NCBI GenBank assembly: GCA_002773855.1 | Contig: PEZY01000012.1 | Location: 297,613-361,612 of the forward strand | Reading direction: 5' to 3' | From: Candidatus Buchananbacteria bacterium CG10_big_fil_rev_8_21_14_0_10_33_19 | GTDB taxonomy: Bacteria > Patescibacteriota > Patescibacteriia > 2-01-FULL-39-33 | DNA: 64,000 bases | Shown here: one piece after another, positions 4,870 to 36,773 of the stretch | How positions within the stretch are numbered: position 1 is the first letter of the stretch | Layout: every line of letters starts with the position of its first letter | Notes under the pieces: generated by a model | The model's database searches: none | What the model was told of the DNA's origin: nothing | Seen by the model: the letters and a program-made list of their open reading frames with translations, nothing else | Made by a program: the position numbers and the translations under genes

Positions 4870-6309
4870 ATGACTCATGGAAAATTAGCTAAAAATACCT
4901 TCTTTTTTACTATATCATTGGCTATTCAAAAGGCCATATCTTTTTTGTATTTTATTTTAATTGCTAGGGCTGTCAGTGTTGATGATTTAGGTAAATATTC
5001 ATTTGCTTTGAGTTTTGCTACGATTTTTTCTATGTTTTTGGATTTTGGTACGACTCAAATATTGGTTCGTGAAAGTGCCCGTAAAAAAGAAGACTCCCAA
5101 AAGTATTTATCTAATGTTCTGGGTTTTAAATTAATCGTGTCGGTTTTTGTCTATTTGTTAATTGTCACAGCGGTTAATTTAATGGGCTATCCAGAAATTA
5201 CTAAACAATTAGTGTATGTGACTGGCCTAGTCATTGTTCTTGATTCATTTAGTATCGCATTTTACTCAGTGTTAAGGGGTTTACAGAATTTAGTTTTTGA
5301 AAGTCTCGGTGTGATTGTTAATCAAATTATTTTACTTAGTTTGGGTTTTGTAGTTTTACAATTGAACTTAGGTTTAGTGGTTCTGATGAGTGTTTATGTG
5401 GTTGGTACTTTATTTAATTTATTTTATTCCGCTGCTTTGTTAAGTTTTAAATATAAGGTTTTTCCTAAGCCAGATTTTTCTGCTAGTTTAATTTTAAAAA
5501 TTTTAAAAATATCATTGCCGTTTGCGATTGCTGGAGTTTTTGTAAGATTATATTCCTATATGGATGTAATTATATTATCTAAATTAACTAATGATGAGGC
5601 GGTTGGTATATATAGTGTGGCTTATAAAGTAACATTTGCCTTGCAGTTTATTGGTGTGGCTTTTTCGGCGGCTATTTATCCAGCTTTTTGTAATTATTTT
5701 GTTTCTTCAAAGGAGATGTTAGCGAAAAGTTTTACTAAATCAGTTTATTATTTATTAATTATTTCCATGCCACTTTCAGTGGGAATTATTACTATTGCTG
5801 ATAAAGCGATAGTGCCAATTTTTGGTGCTGGTTATAGTGAAGCGATAGTGCCATTGCAAATATTAATGGTGTCATTAGTAATTATATTTTTAGCCTTTCC
5901 GGTCGGTGCTTTACTTAATGCTGCTAACAAGCAAACTGCTAACACCGTAGTGTTGGGCTTCATCGCTTTATTTAATATAGTCGCTAATTTAATATTAGTA
6001 CCAATGTTTAGTTATAATGGAGCAGCTTTAGCCGCACTTTTAAGCTACGTGTTGCTATTCTTTATTGGTTTGATTTTGGTTGGTAGTGTAATTAATTATG
6101 ATAAAAAATATCTTTTAATTTCAGCTGTTAAAATAATAATTAGTTGTGTGGCGATGGGATTTTTAGTGATTTTCTTAAAAGAAAGGTTGCATTTTATGAT
6201 AGTTATTCCGATTGGGGCCTTGGCTTATTTTGTGGTTTTATATGTTACCAAAGGTTTCACTCAAAACGATATATTTCAACTTAGGGATTTGTTATTAAAA
6301 AAAACTTAA
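4870..6309 (+). CDS. polysaccharide biosynthesis protein / Wzx-like flippase (MOP superfamily)
   Basis: About 12-14 TM helices and the N-terminal pattern typical of PST-family flippases. Confidence 0.7.
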   Translation: MTHGKLAKNTFFFTISLAIQKAISFLYFILIARAVSVDDLGKYSFALSFATIFSMFLDFGTTQILVRESARKKEDSQKYLSNVLGFKLIVSVFVYLLIVTAVNLMGYPEITKQLVYVTGLVIVLDSFSIAFYSVLRGLQNLVFESLGVIVNQIILLSLGFVVLQLNLGLVVLMSVYVVGTLFNLFYSAALLSFKYKVFPKPDFSASLILKILKISLPFAIAGVFVRLYSYMDVIILSKLTNDEAVGIYSVAYKVTFALQFIGVAFSAAIYPAFCNYFVSSKEMLAKSFTKSVYYLLIISMPLSVGIITIADKAIVPIFGAGYSEAIVPLQILMVSLVIIFLAFPVGALLNAANKQTANTVVLGFIALFNIVANLILVPMFSYNGAALAALLSYVLLFFIGLILVGSVINYDKKYLLISAVKIIISCVAMGFLVIFLKERLHFMIVIPIGALAYFVVLYVTKGFTQNDIFQLRDLLLKKT

Positions 6310-18202: not shown

Positions 18203-18430
18203 TTATTTTTCGATTGAACAGAGATTGGCGTCAAAGCCACAGATAGCACAGATACCAGTAATTACTGCTGGGCTATAATTTTCATTACTACATTGCGGAC
18301 ATCTTAGTAGTCCAATAGCACCGCCATCTTTACAGATAAAGCCAGAGCCTAGTAACTTATCACCCTCTTGAAATTTAATTTCAATATTATCAAAATCTTT
18401 TGGTGTTGGTAATTTTTTGATTTGGGTCAT
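18203..18430 (-). CDS. small Cys-rich protein, zinc-ribbon-like
   Basis: CPQC and CAIC pairs; convergent with gltX. Confidence 0.4.
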   Translation of the reverse strand: MTQIKKLPTPKDFDNIEIKFQEGDKLLGSGFICKDGGAIGLLRCPQCSNENYSPAVITGICAICGFDANLCSIEK

Positions 18431-18502
18431 TGTAGTAATATCCTTTTTGTTTGATGTTTGGAAGGTGCAATTAATAGATATATTATGTAAATATTATTTT
18501 AT

Positions 18503-18531
18503 TGTCAATTGCCAGTATCTTGTGTTATAAT
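18503..18531 (+). promoter_or_regulatory. sigma70-like promoter with an extended -10, upstream of the M23 peptidase
   Basis: TTGTCA-N17-TGtTATAAT. Confidence 0.55.
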
Positions 18532-18557: not shown

Positions 18558-19820
18558 ATGCCAAGACAAGATAGACTTTGGAATTTAGCTAAATATCATA
18601 TTATTGCTTTGTTGTTAATGCCAATACTGCTTGTTGGTGTTTTTTTATTTACTACTAGAGGGTTGGTGGCCGAAGAAACAGCAGTAACTACTGGTGCTAA
18701 TCAGACTGAGGTTGACGATTTAACTCAACAAATTGATGATCAAAGAAAAAAAATTGATGCTATTGCTGATAAAATTAATGAATATAAAAGTAGTATTAGT
18801 AAATTTCAAAAACAATCTAATACTTTAAAAAATCAAGTTTATATCATAGATAATCAAATAGCTAAAACCGAATTAGATATTGAAGCTAAAAATGAAGAGG
18901 TTACAGTTACTGAGTTGGAAATATCTAAAGTAGAGTTAGAGATTGTAGATAATCAAAAAGCCATTGAAGAGCAAAAGAAATATTTATCAGCTTTTATTAG
19001 GTTATTGGATTATTATGATGATAAAGATTATTTATCAATACTGTTAAATAATAACTCTTTTTCCGAATTTTTTGATCAAATAAATAATATTGAGGGTATT
19101 GAAGAAGATTTACAAAAAACTTTAAATCGCTTTCAAGAGTTAATTGATAGATATAACGCTCAAAAAGATGAGCTAAATGCCAAAAGAGACAAGTTATCTG
19201 AACTTTTGAATAAATTAGAGAGTGAAAAAGATTCACTACAAGCTCAAATAGGGACTAAACAATATTTAATTGCTGAAACTAATAATTCTGAAAATAAATA
19301 TCAAGGCTTGGTTAGTGATTTAAAGCAGCAACAGTTAGCCGCTAATAATGCAGTGGCTGAAATGGAAAGAAGATTGCGTCAAGAATTAGAAAAGAAAGGT
19401 CCAGACGAGGCTTTTAATAATTTAGCTGAAGCAGCACTTATTTGGCCAACTAGTAGTCATCGGATTACCGCTCATTTTCATGATGCTGATTATCCATTTA
19501 AAGCTACGGTTGGTGAGCACTCTGGTTTGGATATCGGCGTAGGCAAGGGGACACCAGTAATGGCAGCTGAAAGTGGCTACGTGGCTAAAGCGGCTATTGG
19601 TACTAAGTGGTATGGTAATTATGTTATGATTATTCATAGTAATAACTTAGCTACTCTTTATGCTCATCTTAATTCTTTAAATGTTAAAACAGATCAATAT
19701 ATTAGCAAAGGGCAGGTAATTGGCCTGAGTGGTAGCACCGGTTTTTCTTCTGGACCACATCTTCATTTTGAGGTTAGATCTGGTGGAATCCCAGTTAATC
19801 CTTTAAATTATTTACCTTAG
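18558..19820 (+). CDS. M23-family metallopeptidase with an N-terminal coiled coil (EnvC-like)
   Basis: HSGLDIG...HLHFEV LytM/M23 motifs after a long coiled-coil region. Confidence 0.85.
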   Translation: MPRQDRLWNLAKYHIIALLLMPILLVGVFLFTTRGLVAEETAVTTGANQTEVDDLTQQIDDQRKKIDAIADKINEYKSSISKFQKQSNTLKNQVYIIDNQIAKTELDIEAKNEEVTVTELEISKVELEIVDNQKAIEEQKKYLSAFIRLLDYYDDKDYLSILLNNNSFSEFFDQINNIEGIEEDLQKTLNRFQELIDRYNAQKDELNAKRDKLSELLNKLESEKDSLQAQIGTKQYLIAETNNSENKYQGLVSDLKQQQLAANNAVAEMERRLRQELEKKGPDEAFNNLAEAALIWPTSSHRITAHFHDADYPFKATVGEHSGLDIGVGKGTPVMAAESGYVAKAAIGTKWYGNYVMIIHSNNLATLYAHLNSLNVKTDQYISKGQVIGLSGSTGFSSGPHLHFEVRSGGIPVNPLNYLP

Positions 19821-19829
19821 CTTATATTT

Positions 19830-20246
19830 ATGGATAGGGATGAAATTATTAAATCAATTTTAACTTTTATATCTAATATATTTATTTGGTTTATCTTGTC
19901 TGGTATAGTATTTTTTATGTATTTCTTTTTTAATAAAGAATTGTATGAAAAATTGATTAAGTTTTTAATACCAGTTTTTATTTATTCGTCCGGTTTGATT
20001 TTGGTGTCTATGTGGCGTAAACGAAAAAATGATAATTTAGTTAAAGGTGGTAGTGAAACTGGATCGACAATTTATATTACTCAATGGGATAGGATGAAGC
20101 ATGATTTAGTGATGTTTATGACACCAATTATCATGTTGTTGGTAGCCAAATTTTATAAAAAAAATGTTGATGGTTTTGATATTATTTTGTCAGCTATTGC
20201 ATTTATAGGGCTTTATATGTCAAAATGGGTTTATAATAAAAAATAA
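19830..20246 (+). CDS. hypothetical membrane protein
   Basis: About 4 TM segments. Confidence 0.4.
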   Translation: MDRDEIIKSILTFISNIFIWFILSGIVFFMYFFFNKELYEKLIKFLIPVFIYSSGLILVSMWRKRKNDNLVKGGSETGSTIYITQWDRMKHDLVMFMTPIIMLLVAKFYKKNVDGFDIILSAIAFIGLYMSKWVYNKK

Positions 20247-20274
20247 AATAAAATAAATAATAATGTCTTAATAT

Positions 20275-20427
20275 ATGGAAAGTATAGTAAAATGTGCTCA
20301 ATGTGATATGCCTATAACTGATGAATCAAAATGTAAATGTGACTCTAATTTGTGTAAAGATTGTTGTGATTGTAAAAAATCAGAAGATTCAAAGTGTGCC
20401 TGTGGCCATGATTGCGGTTGTAAATAG
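20275..20427 (+). CDS. metallothionein-like small protein (50 aa, 13 Cys)
   Basis: MESIVKCAQCDMPITDESKCKCDSNLCKDCCDCKKSEDSKCACGHDCGCK; repeated CxC/KCACxxxC motifs; followed by an intrinsic terminator; under the ORF track's length cut-off. Confidence 0.45.
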   Translation: MESIVKCAQCDMPITDESKCKCDSNLCKDCCDCKKSEDSKCACGHDCGCK

Positions 20428-20443
20428 TATTTAAGTATTTTAA

Positions 20444-20469
20444 ATAGCCCCTTGCAGGGCTATTTTTTA
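20444..20469 (+). terminator. Rho-independent terminator
   Basis: tagccc-cttgca-gggcta followed by ttttttatt. Confidence 0.65.
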
Positions 20470-20557
20470 TTTGACTAAAATTTAATTTTATTGTAAAATA
20501 TTAATCTAATAATAGCTCTTTTAACAACTAAAATGGAAACCACAGGAGTGTTACAGT

Positions 20558-20818
20558 ATGAAGCATATTAATCAGGCAATTGAAGATCTGTTGTATAATT
20601 TAAAAATGGCTTATTTAAAGGTTAAATATCGCATATGGAATAAGTATATTCTTATGTGGTGGTATCGTTTATGGATCAGACAAGACGAAAATCATAAGTC
20701 GTTAGACATGGACTGGCGAGCGACAGTAGGAATGGATGAAAAAGGTATTAAAAAATATTTTCTGGATCTATCTAGGCGCAGAGATATTGCTCATGAACGA
20801 GATAAACTGAGGGAGTGA
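20558..20818 (+). CDS. hypothetical protein
   Basis: Good SD (caggag) 8 nt upstream of the start. Confidence 0.5.
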   Translation: MKHINQAIEDLLYNLKMAYLKVKYRIWNKYILMWWYRLWIRQDENHKSLDMDWRATVGMDEKGIKKYFLDLSRRRDIAHERDKLRE

Positions 20819-20824
20819 TACTTA

Positions 20825-21817
20825 ATGAAAAAGTTATCACCTCAACATATTTTAAGAAAGTGTTCTAAGTGTCGCTGTCTTCGCACTAATACTGGTAATG
20901 AATTTTTTTGTAGTTTACACTATGATCAACCAGAAAAGGGAATCCATACTTTGTTAGACTTTAAAAAAAATCATCATGGAGTTAATATTGATGAACCTAA
21001 GTGTGCTGGACGCTCTAATGCAGTTGACCTAGAAACATTGGTTAATGAAGTAGCAGCTAGAGCCAGACATTTCGGTAGAAGTTTAATTGGTTTTTCAACT
21101 GGCTCTCTTTATAAATTTGAAGTGCCGTTAGTGGATAAATTAAAAGCTTTTCTTCGAGCTGGTTCAACGGTTTTGGAATTAAGTTTTGCCACCACAGAAG
21201 AATTACTAGCTTTTGATCCAACTGAAGCCGATTTAAGTAAGTTTAAAAAATATCATAAAATTACTGTTCATGCTCCTTGGAAGGGTATTAGGTATTTTGA
21301 TGGTACTGTTCAGGCCTATCAGGTGATTGAAAAAATCATAGAATTAGGTCAACTTTTTCATGTTAGCGGAGTAGTGTTTCATCCAGATATTGTAGATAAT
21401 TTTGATGCTTTGGATTTTGTGCCACTGCCAATTTTGATTGAAAATATGGATCGTAATAAGAAGTTTGGTATTTCGCCGGAAGAAATGGCTATGATCAAGC
21501 TTAATTATGGTTTTGATTTTGTTTTGGACTTGCAACATGCCTATGAGCATGATCCGTCAATGTTATTAGCTCAGGAGTTAATAGAGGCTATGGGTGATCG
21601 TATTGCCCATTTGCATGTTAGTGGTCAATCTAAAACTAGTCGTCATGCTCCAGTTTATCAAGCTAATAACAAGAATGAGATATGTAAACTACTTAGGACA
21701 TTACCTAACATACCAGTAATATTAGAGGGGGTTATTTCAGAAAATTTCTTTCCTAGTATTAAGATAGAAATTCACTATGTTACTGAAAATGGTGATCCAT
21801 TTAAAAAAAAATACTAA
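20825..21817 (+). CDS. xylose-isomerase-like TIM-barrel protein (AP endonuclease family 2 / sugar-phosphate isomerase fold) with an N-terminal Cys cluster
   Basis: HAPW, FHPD, IENM, DLQHAY and HLHVSG metal-ligand pattern; N-terminal CSKCRC..C..H; strong SD. Confidence 0.55.
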   Translation: MKKLSPQHILRKCSKCRCLRTNTGNEFFCSLHYDQPEKGIHTLLDFKKNHHGVNIDEPKCAGRSNAVDLETLVNEVAARARHFGRSLIGFSTGSLYKFEVPLVDKLKAFLRAGSTVLELSFATTEELLAFDPTEADLSKFKKYHKITVHAPWKGIRYFDGTVQAYQVIEKIIELGQLFHVSGVVFHPDIVDNFDALDFVPLPILIENMDRNKKFGISPEEMAMIKLNYGFDFVLDLQHAYEHDPSMLLAQELIEAMGDRIAHLHVSGQSKTSRHAPVYQANNKNEICKLLRTLPNIPVILEGVISENFFPSIKIEIHYVTENGDPFKKKY

Positions 21818-33385: not shown

Positions 33386-33435
33386 AAAAAAAAATAATTT
33401 TATGTTATTAATTCTATTATAGCATAATTATTTGG

Positions 33436-33469
33436 ACAAATAAAAATCCCGTCGGTAAAGACGGGATTT
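33436..33469 (-). terminator. Rho-independent terminator closing the left end of the GC-rich island
   Basis: aaatcccgtc-ggtaaa-gacgggattt, a 10-bp perfect stem, with a minus-strand T-run. Confidence 0.65.
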
Positions 33470-33803
33470 AGAGAAGGGTGAACTGGAATGTTGTGAAACT
33501 GTATTTGAGAGAGAATCTCCAAACTAAAGTTGGAGAAATGCAATTTACAACATACCAGCATGAAATCCTTCCCTCAGTGAAAAATTATAGCACCCCTAAA
33601 AAATACAATCAATCTTTTTTTTAATTTTTCTGTGGATAAAAAAAATCTCTTCCATTGCGCCGTTAAGTTTCTAAAAATACTTAGACACTTAACGGGGAAA
33701 AAGAAGAGAGATTTTCTAGTCCTAAGACTTTAACTTCCCCGGTCAAATTAATAAGTTAATTATTAATTTGATTAGGGAGAGGAAGTATCAATGACGCCTC
33801 CTC

Positions 33804-34037
33804 TCAAATGGTTTCGACTGTGATCAGTGCCGCTTCGCTTTTTCGAATGGCAATGACACTATCATAAATTTTAAGGCGCATAGGGTCACCTAGTGGAGCA
33901 AAGCCTAAAACTTCAATCCCCGCTCCCTCAATGAAGCCCATTTCTAGTAGTCGTTGAAAGACAGCAAATACTGTTTCTTTTATTTCTACGACTATACAAA
34001 ATTGGCAGGCGTGTAACTTATCTAGAGTGGTGGTCAT
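33804..34037 (-). CDS. feoA: FeoA-family protein (orphan; no feoB present)
   Basis: RLLEMGF.EGAGIEVLGFAPLGDPMRLKI....IAIRKSEAALITVE matches the FeoA SH3-like consensus. Confidence 0.7.
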   Translation of the reverse strand: MTTTLDKLHACQFCIVVEIKETVFAVFQRLLEMGFIEGAGIEVLGFAPLGDPMRLKIYDSVIAIRKSEAALITVETI

Positions 34038-34105
34038 AATATAAAACCTCTCTTAGATGATGAGCGGGCTGACAGATTGGATCTGCAGCCCGCTAAATGT
34101 TGGGG

Positions 34106-34324
34106 TTAGACAGCTTCGGGACGAAGCTGTCTCATGAAGTCGAAGCAGTCAACTGCTCTGTCCTCAAGGACATCGGAGCGATGTACTGGACAACGAGAGC
34201 ATGGCGACGTTTCGTCTTCACAGATGAGTCCGCGTTGCAGAATTTCTTCTGCGGACAGCGTCTCCAATTCTGACATGGGATGGGCATGAGGACAATCCTC
34301 ACATTCGTTATGACACATGGCCAT
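34106..34324 (-). CDS. small Cys-rich protein (CxxxCxxC..CxxC), C-terminal DCFDF motif
   Basis: ORF in the GC-rich island; its 3' end is encoded by a perfect hairpin at 34109-34131. Confidence 0.35.
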   Translation of the reverse strand: MAMCHNECEDCPHAHPMSELETLSAEEILQRGLICEDETSPCSRCPVHRSDVLEDRAVDCFDFMRQLRPEAV

Positions 34325-34385
34325 AGCATTTCTCCTTATTCGGTTGCAATTGATCTAGTCCGAGAAATTCGGGCTAGTAAAAGAG

Positions 34386-34568
34386 CTACTGGGGATATTC
34401 CATTTCAGGGAAATGGAGGTCGAAACAGTCTGGACAATAGCCATGGCTAATGTCTCTCCTACCTTCGACGGACTGCTCTGTCCATGAGCCGTCAGTTTGA
34501 CGAACCTTTTTACATACGCAACATTGAACTACCATTGATGTACCTCCATAGTTGAATTTTCCCCACAA
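34386..34568 (-). CDS. small zinc-ribbon-like protein (CCVC...CPDC), C-terminal DCFDL motif
   Basis: ORF in the GC-rich island. Confidence 0.35.
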   Translation of the reverse strand: MWGKFNYGGTSMVVQCCVCKKVRQTDGSWTEQSVEGRRDISHGYCPDCFDLHFPEMEYPQ

Positions 34569-34648
34569 CGATACGAAGCAAGTTTGAACAAAATGGTCGG
34601 TCTCTTATAATATATATTTATTTGTACCGGTTTTGTCAAGTTTGCTTG

Positions 34649-34670
34649 TTAGTAGACCTACTAGTAAATA
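34649..34670. repeat. Inverted-repeat arm L (ttagtagacctactagtaaata)
   Basis: Partner arm at 34795-34819; about 17/20 of the aligned positions match the reverse complement. Confidence 0.5.
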
Positions 34671-34794
34671 TTTTTTGTTTATAAACTTTTATAATTTTGA
34701 GATAAATTTTTCAAATAATCTTTGCGGTTTAGAGGTTCTAAATTAAAAAGATTTTTGGAAATTTAGTCGAAATTTATAAGTTTTAACAAAAAGG

Positions 34795-34819
34795 TATTTA
34801 CTAGTGGGTCTACACCTAG
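34795..34819. repeat. Inverted-repeat arm R (tatttactagtgggtctacacctag)
   Basis: Reverse complement of arm L; the 120 bp between them is AT-rich. Confidence 0.5.
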
Positions 34820-35006
34820 CATGTCCCTCCTTCGTATCGGCGTGGAGAAAATTCTCCAATCGCCAGTTCATTAGAACAACTAATAGAGGATGACTGATGA
34901 AAAATAGATTTCATAAGGCCCTATTATGGTTGTGACCCGAAACATATAATTCGTAATTTGTTCCCTCCCCTATATGATTGTTCTAAAATAAATTTAATGT
35001 ACTCTT

Positions 35007-35120
35007 CAAAACTATCCCGTCAAATTGATTTCAATTCCCTCATAATTAACATTTTCTGGAATATTCTTTTTTAACAAGATAGTTTTGAGGAGAAATCTTT
35101 ATGGTTATTATGATTTCTCC
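35007..35120 (-). ncRNA. Structured repeat element, copy A (long-range helix plus terminal GC hairpin); strand tentative
   Basis: 5' arm caaaactatc pairs with 3' arm gatagttttg; hairpin ggagaaatc/gatttctcc. Confidence 0.4.
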
Positions 35121-35289
35121 AGATTTTGCTGGCGAGTATTATTTTCAAGTGGCATCCTCTACTGGTTGAAAAATAGTAGCCCTTTTCTCTAAATACGCAG
35201 ATCAGGCCACCAACTACTCGATAAGTGTGTAAAATTTTACCGTAACGAACTTCTAATAACTCTGATTGTGACATCTCACTATCCTCCAT
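35071..35289 (-). CDS. questionable small ORF overlapping copy A of the structured element
   Basis: From the ORF track; its C-terminus is encoded by the hairpin region. Confidence 0.15.
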   Translation of the reverse strand: MEDSEMSQSELLEVRYGKILHTYRVVGGLICVFREKGYYFSTSRGCHLKIILASKIWRNHNNHKDFSSKLSC

Positions 35290-35300
35290 GGTTTTTTACC

Positions 35301-35420
35301 AGAACTATCCAGTCAATCGATTTTATTCCCTCCTTTGTATTTTTTATAAATCAAGAAATGGAACCCTCATATTGACAAGATAGTTTTGGTGAGGAGCACG
35401 AGTTCAATGTCGTGCTCCTC
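35301..35420 (-). ncRNA. Structured repeat element, copy B
   Basis: Arms agaactatccagtcaat / attgacaagatagttttgg; hairpin gaggagcacga/tcgtgctcctc. Confidence 0.4.
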
Positions 35421-35427
35421 TGTATCT

Positions 35428-35631
35428 TTACCTCCACGGTTGGTGGTAAAGACATGTTCCGTGGTGTTCGCGCATCATAAACACCACGGAAAGGTCCATT
35501 GACAATTTTCTGGCTACCTTAACAGCCCCAACAAAACTGTCAAATACATAGATAAAGTCTATGCAATCGCAGGTGTAACCAAATACTGTATACATAAATT
35601 TCTCCTCTCGTTGTTGAAATGTACTACCCAA
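35428..35631 (-). CDS. small Cys-containing ORF (likely start MYTVFGYTCDCIDF...), preceded by copy C of the structured element and a GAGGAG Shine-Dalgarno
   Basis: SD gagaggag 8 nt upstream of the internal Met; shares the GYxCDCxDF motif with ORF 34386-34568. Confidence 0.3.
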   Translation of the reverse strand: MGSTFQQREEKFMYTVFGYTCDCIDFIYVFDSFVGAVKVARKLSMDLSVVFMMREHHGTCLYHQPWR

Positions 35632-35733
35632 AACTATCTAGCCAATCCCGTAAATCCTCTAAATTGATTTAAGTAGAATCAGCAGATTAGCGAGATGGTT
35701 TTGGGAGGGGCTGGACATCACAGGTCCAGCCCC
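35629..35733 (-). ncRNA. Structured repeat element, copy C
   Basis: 21-nt arms cccaaaactatctagccaatc / gattagcgagatggttttggg; hairpin ggggctggac/gtccagcccc. Confidence 0.4.
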
Positions 35734-36736
35734 AGAAAGGTTGAGTGCGCATGGACAACACACCCAAGAATGAAGATTGTCGGATCAAAGATCCTTATCA
35801 GGGCGACGCATCTAGATAACTAGCTGCCGCCCTTATAAGGAGCTTCGAATCTTTTTAACAAGAGATTAAAAGATTCACTCCCTTAAAACAAAAGAACCCT
35901 GGTTGGAGAGAGAGGGTTCCTTTGCGGTGACCACTATAATAAATATACTGGTGGTTTTTTCTCTCTCCTTATTGTGCTAGCATTATATCATATAACAGTA
36001 ATCTTGTCAAGTATATTGCTGGTTTTTTGCTAAAAATTAGCTAAAATTAGCTAATATTATAAACTTGTCAATATGATAAAATTGTGATGTAATATAGTTT
36101 TATGAAATTTAGTTACTTAGTATTTCTTATATTCGTTATTCAATGAGTTATATATCTTATCTCTTTCTATCTGTTACTTTTGTACCGCCAAAAGTAACCA
36201 AAAGCTCGCAAACGTAAAAAATCATGGCAATTTTATATCAGCTCGCTAGAGCCAATTAAACAAAACAGCGACCTAATAATTGTCTCTAACGCTCGCCTTG
36301 ATATAAAATTGACACAATATTTTTTAATGTTTGCATTTTTTATAATAAATATATAAATAAATTCGAGCATATGAAAAATTAAGTAGAAAAACAATAATAA
36401 ATTAAGCGTTTGTGAGTTGTCTACGAACAAATTTTTCGCATGTCTGAGCCATTTTCGACCTATCTAAATAAATAGAAAATGGTGAGTTCGGAAAATAGCG
36501 AAGATTTATTATAGTTTTTCCTTAATTTTATCATCGCTCGTAGTTTTTGTGTTACTTTTTGCTATCAAAAAGTGACGAGAAAAGTTATTAAAAAATGAGA
36601 TTGCTTCTTACCTCGCAATGACGTTTGTAGATGGAGTGTAAAGTAATAGAAATAAAGAAAATAATCTCTCTACCTCCCCCACCCGTATAGTTGCGGTCGA
36701 TATGACATGATAAAATAAAATAAAATTATAGATAAA

Positions 36737-36765
36737 AAAGACTAGTCATATGACTAGTCTTTTAA
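36737..36765. terminator. Perfect palindromic hairpin; bidirectional terminator downstream of the helicase-nuclease gene
   Basis: aaaagactagtcatatgactagtctttt. Confidence 0.65.
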
Positions 36766-36773
36766 AAGCATAA

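Follow-up and report, generated by a model that had tools for sequence, protein, structure and literature searches.

A candidate metallothionein-like microprotein encoded at the end of an M23 peptidase transcription unit in Falkowbacteria

The window analysed here, a stretch of DNA of 64,000 nucleotides, carries a small gene for a Cys-rich protein of 50 residues. The gene is genuinely coding and is restricted to a narrow clade of Falkowbacteria, and selection acts on the amino acid sequence of its product, above all on the Cys residues. The depth of conservation is modest: there are five sequence types, from closely syntenic genomes. By every criterion that sequence can address, the protein appears to be metallothionein-like and to be unrelated to any described family. 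We consider it about an even bet (a probability of roughly 0.5) that it serves as a lineage-restricted, all-thiolate, metallothionein-like metal buffer, reservoir, or sink that is not of the SmtA/BmtA type. Within this proposal we infer the metal binding, its stoichiometry, the identity of the metal, and the physiological role.

20275..20427, + strand: gene for the Cys-rich microprotein (50 aa, 12 Cys; evidence from 5 orthologues, dN/dS, Cys columns, and the open frame)

The Cys-rich protein and its family

Translation of 20275-20427 (+) gives MESIVKCAQCDMPITDESKCKCDSNLCKDCCDCKKSEDSKCACGHDCGCK, which is an exact match to the translation in the initial annotation of this DNA. The Cys residues follow the pattern C-x2-C-x9-C-x-C-x4-C-x2-C-C-x-C-x7-C-x-C-x3-C-x-C, in which there are four CxC motifs, two CxxC motifs (CAQC and CKDC), and one CC; the protein has one His and no Phe, Trp, or Tyr. 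The initial annotation had pointed to CxC repeats together with a KCAC-x3-C motif, to a single His, and to the lack of a hydrophobic core. The motifs and the lone His can indeed be read from the sequence, and all five members of the family described below are free of aromatic residues and contain only 4-6 aliphatic ones (Ile/Leu/Val/Met). Two other statements need correction: the Cys content is 24% (12 residues, not 13) rather than 26%, and the gene is not unannotated, since GenBank already lists its product as hypothetical protein GW933_01715 / NCN07390.1. The source of NCN07390.1 in GenBank is a Candidatus Falkowbacteria bacterium MAG, and gene calls for the protein are present on at least 24 JGI, ENA, and Logan contigs. 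Because just one codon separates ATG 20275 from the upstream in-frame stop, this ATG is the sole possible start besides the internal Met12.

The window has a GC content of 32%, and Cys codons make up 2.2% of its triplets, so that ~1.1 would be expected per 50 codons. The chance of finding at least 12 Cys in 50 codons is P = 8e-10, or ~1e-4 when corrected for all 50-codon windows in six frames. When the 715 ORFs with a length of 30 aa or more were compared, the runner-up Cys-rich stretch of 50 aa had 6 Cys.

The family alignment covers five members: the window protein, P0002, P0003, P0004, and P0005. All are small (39-52 aa), have a Cys content of 23-28%, and are acidic, with Asp+Glu exceeding Lys+Arg in 5/5. 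The N-terminal part is an eight-Cys core of invariant spacing, C-x2-C-x9-C-x-C-x4-C-x2-C-C-x-C, which is followed by a variable linker of 2-9 residues, either acidic or Ser-rich, and then by a C-terminal module. Four members have C-x-C-x3-C-x-C as this module, and P0004, the protein of locus L008, has C-x-C-x-C; P0004 therefore has 11 Cys, and in it C-E-C-N-C replaces the KCAC-type C-terminal motif. Besides the Cys residues, K6, D16, K19, and D23 are invariant, as are the pairs K6-C7 and K19-C20. His45 is Ser in P0003 and has no counterpart in P0004, whose His is elsewhere; thus, His45 is not a conserved ligand of the kind used by SmtA. The N-terminus reads as short, charged, and Cys-containing, which argues that it is not a signal peptide.

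An AF2 model made from a four-sequence alignment, with no metals present, has a mean pLDDT of 56; it shows the first CxxC in a β-hairpin and residues 17-32 as a helix. This pLDDT is too weak for fold assignment; modelled without metals, such a value is the one expected if the fold depends on metal. A Foldseek search of the low-confidence model against the PDB yielded one meaningless match (E=9.7).

Orthologues and evidence for a coding gene

Four further orthologues, 39-52 aa in length and 59-78% identical, lie in the same syntenic slot. When 1.84 billion representative proteins were searched exhaustively with phmmer (E≤0.001), the orthologue P0002 (46 aa) was the single match. P0003 (50 aa) and P0005 (52 aa) came from profile searches, and L008, which encodes the 39-aa version P0004, came from a genome scan that used the downstream 330-aa gene as its anchor; P0006 differs from P0004 by one residue. 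Searches of 5.8 billion protein clusters plus the 1.84 billion representatives gave just 5 sequence types of the protein. Divergence between the genomes is moderate, with GluRS 76-78% identical and the M23 peptidase 77-86% identical. Loci L001-L004 encode the identical protein, and since their DNA is 100% identical to the window over 441 nt, they carry no information on selection. A scan of viral contigs gave no match, and neither did a scan of genome contigs with the 138-aa membrane protein encoded just upstream, while the same kind of scan with the 330-aa protein gave one locus, L008. Metagenome scans with the profiles of the Cys-rich protein and the membrane protein also gave no match; these are uninformative, as the JGI contigs L001 and L003 carry the locus.

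The dN/dS of the gene is 0.11-0.20, in the same range as that of the flanking genes (0.09-0.24), and its synonymous sites are near saturation (pS 0.62-0.85). Indels among the orthologues keep the frame, and frame +1 is the sole frame open across all five loci. The Cys columns of the alignment are free of substitution in 12/12 cases (where the residue is present) versus 7/33 of the other columns (Fisher p = 1.8e-6). Both TGT and TGC are used in 10/12 Cys columns, and 42% of the pairwise Cys-codon comparisons differ synonymously; the use of both codons indicates that the target of selection is the encoded residue rather than a nucleotide motif. The initial annotation had named loss of the reading frame or of the Cys positions at related loci as the outcome that would speak against it, and both are kept in the four other loci.

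These results bear directly on the idea that the ORF is spurious and that the DNA is instead a noncoding 3' UTR, an sRNA, or a TGT-rich element. Such an idea can draw on the shortness of the ORF, the lack of a Shine-Dalgarno sequence, and the lack of homologues outside one clade. However, it is effectively refuted by the dN/dS of 0.11-0.20 with saturated synonymous sites, by TGT/TGC switches that occur without loss of Cys, by in-frame indels, and by the stops that every other frame has in at least one locus. In addition, no Rfam family is found, a search around the ORF at E≤1 giving only a chance snoRNA-like match.

The Cys-rich gene has no Shine-Dalgarno sequence. Across the window, a Shine-Dalgarno-like motif is present within 20 nt of the start in 3/46 ATG-initiated ORFs of at least 150 aa, and because 43/46 of these long ORFs are without one, its absence at the Cys-rich gene is no evidence against translation. 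The upstream regions are simply AT-rich, and this suggests that initiation in this organism is largely independent of Shine-Dalgarno pairing. An AT-rich motif is seen ~8-12 nt before the ATG of the Cys-rich gene: TAATTATTAATA in L005, L006, and L008, TAATTAATAA in L009, and TAAATAATAATG in the window (20251-20266). It is kept even in L008, where the upstream membrane-protein gene is missing; its role could lie in translation initiation, or it could act as an internal -10-like element. An overlapping 37-aa ORF in frame +2 (20321-20434) was considered and rejected, as it contains stops in 4/5 loci.

The transcription unit and its surroundings

The following features make up the unit and its boundary.

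18502..18531, + strand: likely promoter of the unit (TTGTCA, 18-nt spacer, TGnTATAAT with an extended -10)
18558..19820, + strand: first gene, M23 (LytM-type) zinc metallopeptidase, 420 aa (PF01551, E=3e-31)
19830..20246, + strand: second gene, multi-pass membrane protein of no family, 138 aa, 9 nt after the M23 gene
20442..20475, + strand: intrinsic terminator (9-bp stem at 20442-20465, 6-nt loop, T-run)
20471..20499, + strand: promoter of the next unit (TTGACT, 17-nt spacer, TAAAAT preceded by TG; 10/12 matches)

Because a conserved promoter, a terminator, and a second promoter bracket these genes, we take the Cys-rich gene to be the last cistron of an M23-membrane-Cys unit. The sequence at 18502-18531 is likely to drive this unit as a σ70-type promoter; within it, TTGT.AAT and TGTTATAATAT are invariant in 4 orthologous loci, and the flanks vary. 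The terminator (-15.2 kcal/mol, z = -4.4) recurs as a hairpin and T-run at the same place in 5/5 loci with stems of different sequence (z = -3.2 to -6.1), so that the intrinsic terminator reported downstream of the ORF in the initial annotation is both real and conserved. The next promoter, in which TTTGACTAAA and TTGTA.A (TTGTAnAaT) are invariant in 5/5 loci, marks a boundary and lies outside the unit of the Cys-rich gene.

The M23 peptidase has an N-terminal TM segment and a coiled coil, its translation contains the HxxxD and HxH motifs, and its gene is upstream of the Cys-rich gene in 4/4 loci that reach that far. In Pfam, the 138-aa membrane protein has only sub-threshold matches, among them NMN_transporter (E=1.8e-4). 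Its versions in L005 and L006 are 62-78% identical, and the 3' end of its gene is present in L009; the protein is absent from L008, and thus it is not an obligatory partner of the Cys-rich protein. The gaps between genes are 9 nt (M23-membrane) and 28 nt (membrane-Cys). At L008, a 183-nt spacer (5573-5755) replaces the membrane-protein gene. This spacer has three GC-rich hairpins, one of them terminator-like (5641-5655), matches no Rfam family (best E=0.35), and may be either the scar of a deletion or a structured element of small size. L008 (CAYIBK010000010.1) is labelled "uncultured Gammaproteobacteria bacterium"; its GC content is 33% and its gene order follows that of the Falkowbacteria window gene for gene (GluRS 76%, M23 79%, and Xer 80% identical), and the label is probably a binning or taxonomy error.

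More distant neighbours are GluRS, WecG, a Xer-type recombinase, an FtsQ-like protein, Ddl, SerRS, a class II (Asp/Lys/Asn-type) aminoacyl-tRNA synthetase, and PheST. No genes for metal homeostasis (ArsR/SmtB, P-type ATPase, CDF, Znu) are present in the five loci within ~5-12 kb on either side, and over the same range there is no RiPP maturase. The adjacency of the Cys-rich gene to the M23 gene could be merely inherited synteny.

Other small genes lie close to the unit or elsewhere in the window.

18203-18430, - strand: 75-aa ORF, CPQC...CAIC (zinc-ribbon-like), divergent from the M23 operon; no Pfam family
20558-20818, + strand: 86-aa ORF directly after the conserved next-unit promoter; no Pfam family
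20825-21817, + strand: 330-aa protein, common to all loci, 58-65% identity
33804-34037, - strand: FeoA, lone (PF04023, E=5e-17), with no FeoB nearby
34106-34324, - strand: Cys-bearing ORF, 72 aa, beginning MAMCHNECEDCPHAH
34386-34568, - strand: Cys-bearing ORF, 60 aa, CCVCKK...HGYCPDC; weak DUF5679 match

The 75-aa ORF is kept at the same position in L005, L006, and L008 (52-78% identity). The core of the 86-aa ORF, WW[YH]RL[WF]IRQDE...RRR.IAH.RD, recurs in a 52-aa ORF in L005 and in a 106-aa ORF in L009; no counterpart is present in L006 and L008, where only ~130 nt lie at this position. Shine-Dalgarno-like sequences (AGGAG/GGAG) are found at both the 86-aa ORF and the 330-aa gene. In the 330-aa protein, Cys13, Cys16, Cys29, and Cys60 are invariant among three aligned orthologues and precede a domain with weak similarity to AP_endonuc_2 (a xylose-isomerase-like TIM barrel). 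The FeoA gene and the two Cys-bearing ORFs lie within a region of 3.4 kb (33400-36770) that has no ORF of at least 120 aa and contains only small ORFs of the minus strand. Its GC content is 0.40 (34001-36000) versus about 0.32 elsewhere, it matches no Rfam family, and it may be a foreign island.

Tests against known protein families

Metallothioneins are small, Cys-rich proteins that form metal-thiolate clusters (PMC10612145, PMC7387436). The compositional features of this polyphyletic class are present in the Cys-rich protein, namely its size, its Cys content and motifs, and its lack of aromatic residues and of a hydrophobic core. The initial annotation had gone further and assigned the protein to the SmtA/BmtA type (PF02069). 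This assignment does not hold: no Pfam family, whether PF02069 or a eukaryotic metallothionein family, matches any of the five members at E≤10, and hhalign against SmtA gives a probability of 3.3% over 13 columns. Searches of NCBIfam, PADLOC, and PHROGs gave no match to the protein. Among PDB sequences, which include the SmtA and PflQ2MT chains, there was only noise at E≤10, consisting of two chains with E = 0.34 and 3.1. The latter, 6YDH, is a zinc-finger microprotein of Haloferax, and its match is non-significant. Nor does the protein belong with the C(P)XCG (DUF1610-like) proteins, as it has no CPxCG knuckle and no Pfam match and 6YDH is found only at E=3.1.

Binz-Kagi family 14 is reportedly defined by the N-terminal signature K-C-A-C-x2-C-x-C. 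Because a profile match, the His ligands, and this signature motif were each tested and each failed, we conclude that the Cys-rich protein is not a member of the SmtA/BmtA family. A divergent repressor of the SmtB/ArsR type, which is a feature of cyanobacterial SmtA, is found in none of the five loci. The Pseudomonas metallothioneins likewise have no adjacent metal regulator and are found in operons with genes of unknown function (PMC7387436), and thus, the lack of SmtB is not disqualifying. As judged from sequence, the protein appears to belong to no known metallothionein family.

A proposed metal-thiolate cluster and competing explanations

In the proposed mechanism, the protein would be a cytoplasmic, acidic, aromatic-free polypeptide of 39-52 aa whose 11-12 conserved thiolates fold the chain around a polynuclear metal-thiolate cluster. 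A metal-dependent cluster fold is suggested by the 11-12 selected Cys, the lack of a hydrophobic core, the Lys residues next to Cys, the acidic charge, and the failure of prediction without metal. By analogy with metallothioneins of 9-12 ligands, the cluster might hold ~3-4 Zn(II)/Cd(II), or more Cu(I). The two CxxC knuckles may form a zinc-finger-like, perhaps nucleating, site, by analogy with SmtA, and CxC, CC, and CxC-x3-CxC would supply the bridging and terminal thiolates. The origin of the protein would be independent of the SmtA/BmtA and MymT families.

The Cys-rich gene would be transcribed last in a unit headed by a zinc-dependent M23 cell-wall peptidase. Given the σ70-type promoter and the lack of a metal sensor nearby, its expression would be constitutive or coupled to cell-wall remodelling and not metal-induced. 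It is attractive to imagine that the Cys-rich protein supplies zinc to the co-transcribed M23 enzyme; this link is speculative because the catalytic domain of the M23 peptidase is probably outside the cell.

Several observations weigh against a metallothionein-like role: there is no metal-homeostasis gene within about 10 kb, where the neighbours are housekeeping and cell-division genes; no sequence or fold similarity to characterised metallothioneins was found; and the strict spacing of the Cys residues is equally compatible with a rigid structural zinc domain. The protein might instead be a structural multi-zinc microprotein (e.g., with 2-3 Zn(Cys)4 sites arranged as a cross-brace or treble clef) that acts as an interaction or regulatory module, perhaps for the M23 peptidase, the membrane protein, or the division machinery. 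This is the chief competing explanation, and we regard it as somewhat unlikely and still deserving of real weight. The N-terminal C-x2-C-x9-C-x-C-x4-C-x2-C recalls cross-brace and zinc-ribbon patterns, the invariant spacing of the eight-Cys core fits a rigid zinc domain equally well, and in the low-confidence AF2 model the first CxxC falls on a β-hairpin and the second on a helix. Likewise, the neighbouring cell-wall and division genes (M23, Xer-type recombinase, FtsQ-like, Ddl) fit such a module, the acidic charge suits binding to protein rather than to nucleic acid, and regulatory zinc-finger microproteins are known in prokaryotes (PMC6562870, PMC10716476). However, a Cys content of 24-28% with a CC and four CxC far exceeds the need of discrete Zn(Cys)4 fingers, and a hydrophobic core and aromatic residues are absent. 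In addition, the C-terminal module varies (CxC-x3-CxC versus CxCxC in L008), as a precise structural site seldom does, there is no match to a zinc-finger family, and the membrane-protein partner is dispensable.

Two other explanations have less to recommend them. An iron-binding redox protein (a rubredoxin/desulforedoxin-like Fe(Cys)4 protein or a small Fe-S carrier) in an anaerobic CPR bacterium is improbable: a CxxC with an adjacent CC recalls the ligand pattern of desulforedoxin, which we take as a lead only, and there are 12 Cys in a protein from what is probably an anaerobe, but the ferredoxin motif CxxCxxCxxxCP is missing, the rubredoxin, desulforedoxin, and ferredoxin families of Pfam give no match at E≤10, PDB sequences give none either, and no genes for Fe-S assembly or redox partners are nearby. 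Still more improbable is the precursor of a modified or secreted peptide, whether a RiPP (ranthipeptide, sactipeptide, lanthipeptide) or a disulfide-rich toxin. The protein is small and Cys-rich, and its less conserved N-terminal stretch can be read as a leader. Yet Cys residues occur throughout the chain, the would-be leader included (C7 and C10), the protein is acidic and has no signal peptide, and radical-SAM (SPASM), LanB/C/M, YcaO, and peptidase-ABC exporter genes are absent from the five loci. NCBIfam, which should include models for SCIFF-type precursors, gives no match.

Significance

SmtA and MymT are the only two bacterial metallothioneins whose biological function has been studied (PMC7387436). 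Full-text literature searches found no paper that discusses metallothioneins in CPR/Patescibacteria; the 23 co-mentions were incidental, and among the ten matches listed none was relevant by title or abstract. A bolder form of the metallothionein-like reading, which we advance only tentatively and with less than even confidence, is that the family represents a third independent lineage of bacterial metallothioneins after SmtA/BmtA and MymT. This would be an all-Cys lineage with a single cluster of eukaryotic style (~M4Cys11-12), found in a few Falkowbacteria (CPR), encoded in an M23 operon without a metal sensor, and serving as a zinc reservoir or buffer for a minimal genome.

If the metallothionein-like reading is correct, a CPR cluster protein of 50 residues with only thiolate ligands would add an independent origin to the metallothionein class, would open a first way into the study of metal buffering in minimal-genome organisms, and would provide a compact new metal-binding scaffold. 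The very narrow distribution would also make the gene a candidate for a recently born gene. The family is tiny and restricted to one narrow clade, and its context points to no special role; the pay-off is likely to be incremental.

Comparison with known systems

The SmtA/BmtA proteins, including SmtA of Synechococcus and PflQ2MT/PmtA of Pseudomonas, resemble the Cys-rich protein in being small (about 50-56 aa), cytoplasmic, and Cys-rich and in having a KCAC-type motif. A further likeness, probable in the present case, is a thiolate cluster with a smaller, zinc-finger-like CxxC element embedded in it. The number of Zn bound is 4 for SmtA and 3 for PflQ2MT (PMC10612145, PMC7387436). In contrast, the ligands of SmtA/BmtA are Cys9His2 or Cys9His, whereas the Cys-rich protein has 11-12 Cys and no conserved His; the motif of SmtA is KCACxxCxC and N-terminal, whereas here it is K-C-A-C-x3-C-x-C and C-terminal; and SmtA has a Tyr, whereas the present family is without aromatic residues. 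The SmtA/BmtA proteins come from cyanobacteria and proteobacteria and the Cys-rich protein from CPR bacteria, with no detectable homology between them. With the Pseudomonas metallothioneins, the Cys-rich gene shares the lack of a neighbouring metal regulator and its place in an operon with unrelated genes (PMC7387436).

The C(P)XCG microproteins of Haloferax volcanii (HVO_2753 / PDB 6YDH) are also prokaryotic, smaller than 70 aa, and furnished with several Cys pairs, and often have no Pfam family. Their C(P)XCG knuckles contain 4-8 Cys, and they bind at most one zinc (PMC11241148). The Cys-rich protein differs in having 12 Cys, no CPxCG, and the CxC and CC motifs that are typical of clusters.

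A resemblance in the type of ligand is seen with eukaryotic metallothionein domains (the mammalian β domain, M3Cys9, and α domain, M4Cys11) and with the Zn3Cys9 CXC/pre-SET domains, which, like the Cys-rich protein, use only Cys ligands and have no aromatic residues. Here too CxC, CC, and CxxC are flanked by Lys, Ser, and Asp, and the 11-12 Cys of the Cys-rich protein equal those of a single M4 cluster domain. The likeness, as judged by eye, lies in pattern and composition. There is no Pfam match at E≤10 to the eukaryotic metallothionein or CXC domains, and the Cys-rich protein is bacterial and more acidic.

The final comparison is with MymT of Mycobacterium tuberculosis, a Cu(I) protein of 53 aa that is lineage-restricted, has motifs of the CxC and CxxC type, and is unrelated to SmtA (PMC7387436). 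MymT has no sequence relationship to the Cys-rich protein, as the phmmer search of 1.84 billion proteins (E≤0.001) returned P0002 only. Copper induces MymT, which uses His and has fewer Cys, whereas no copper context is seen at the loci of the Cys-rich gene. Nevertheless, the two proteins are alike in size, in Cys-richness, and in the narrowness of their lineages, and MymT provides the precedent for independent origins of bacterial metallothioneins.
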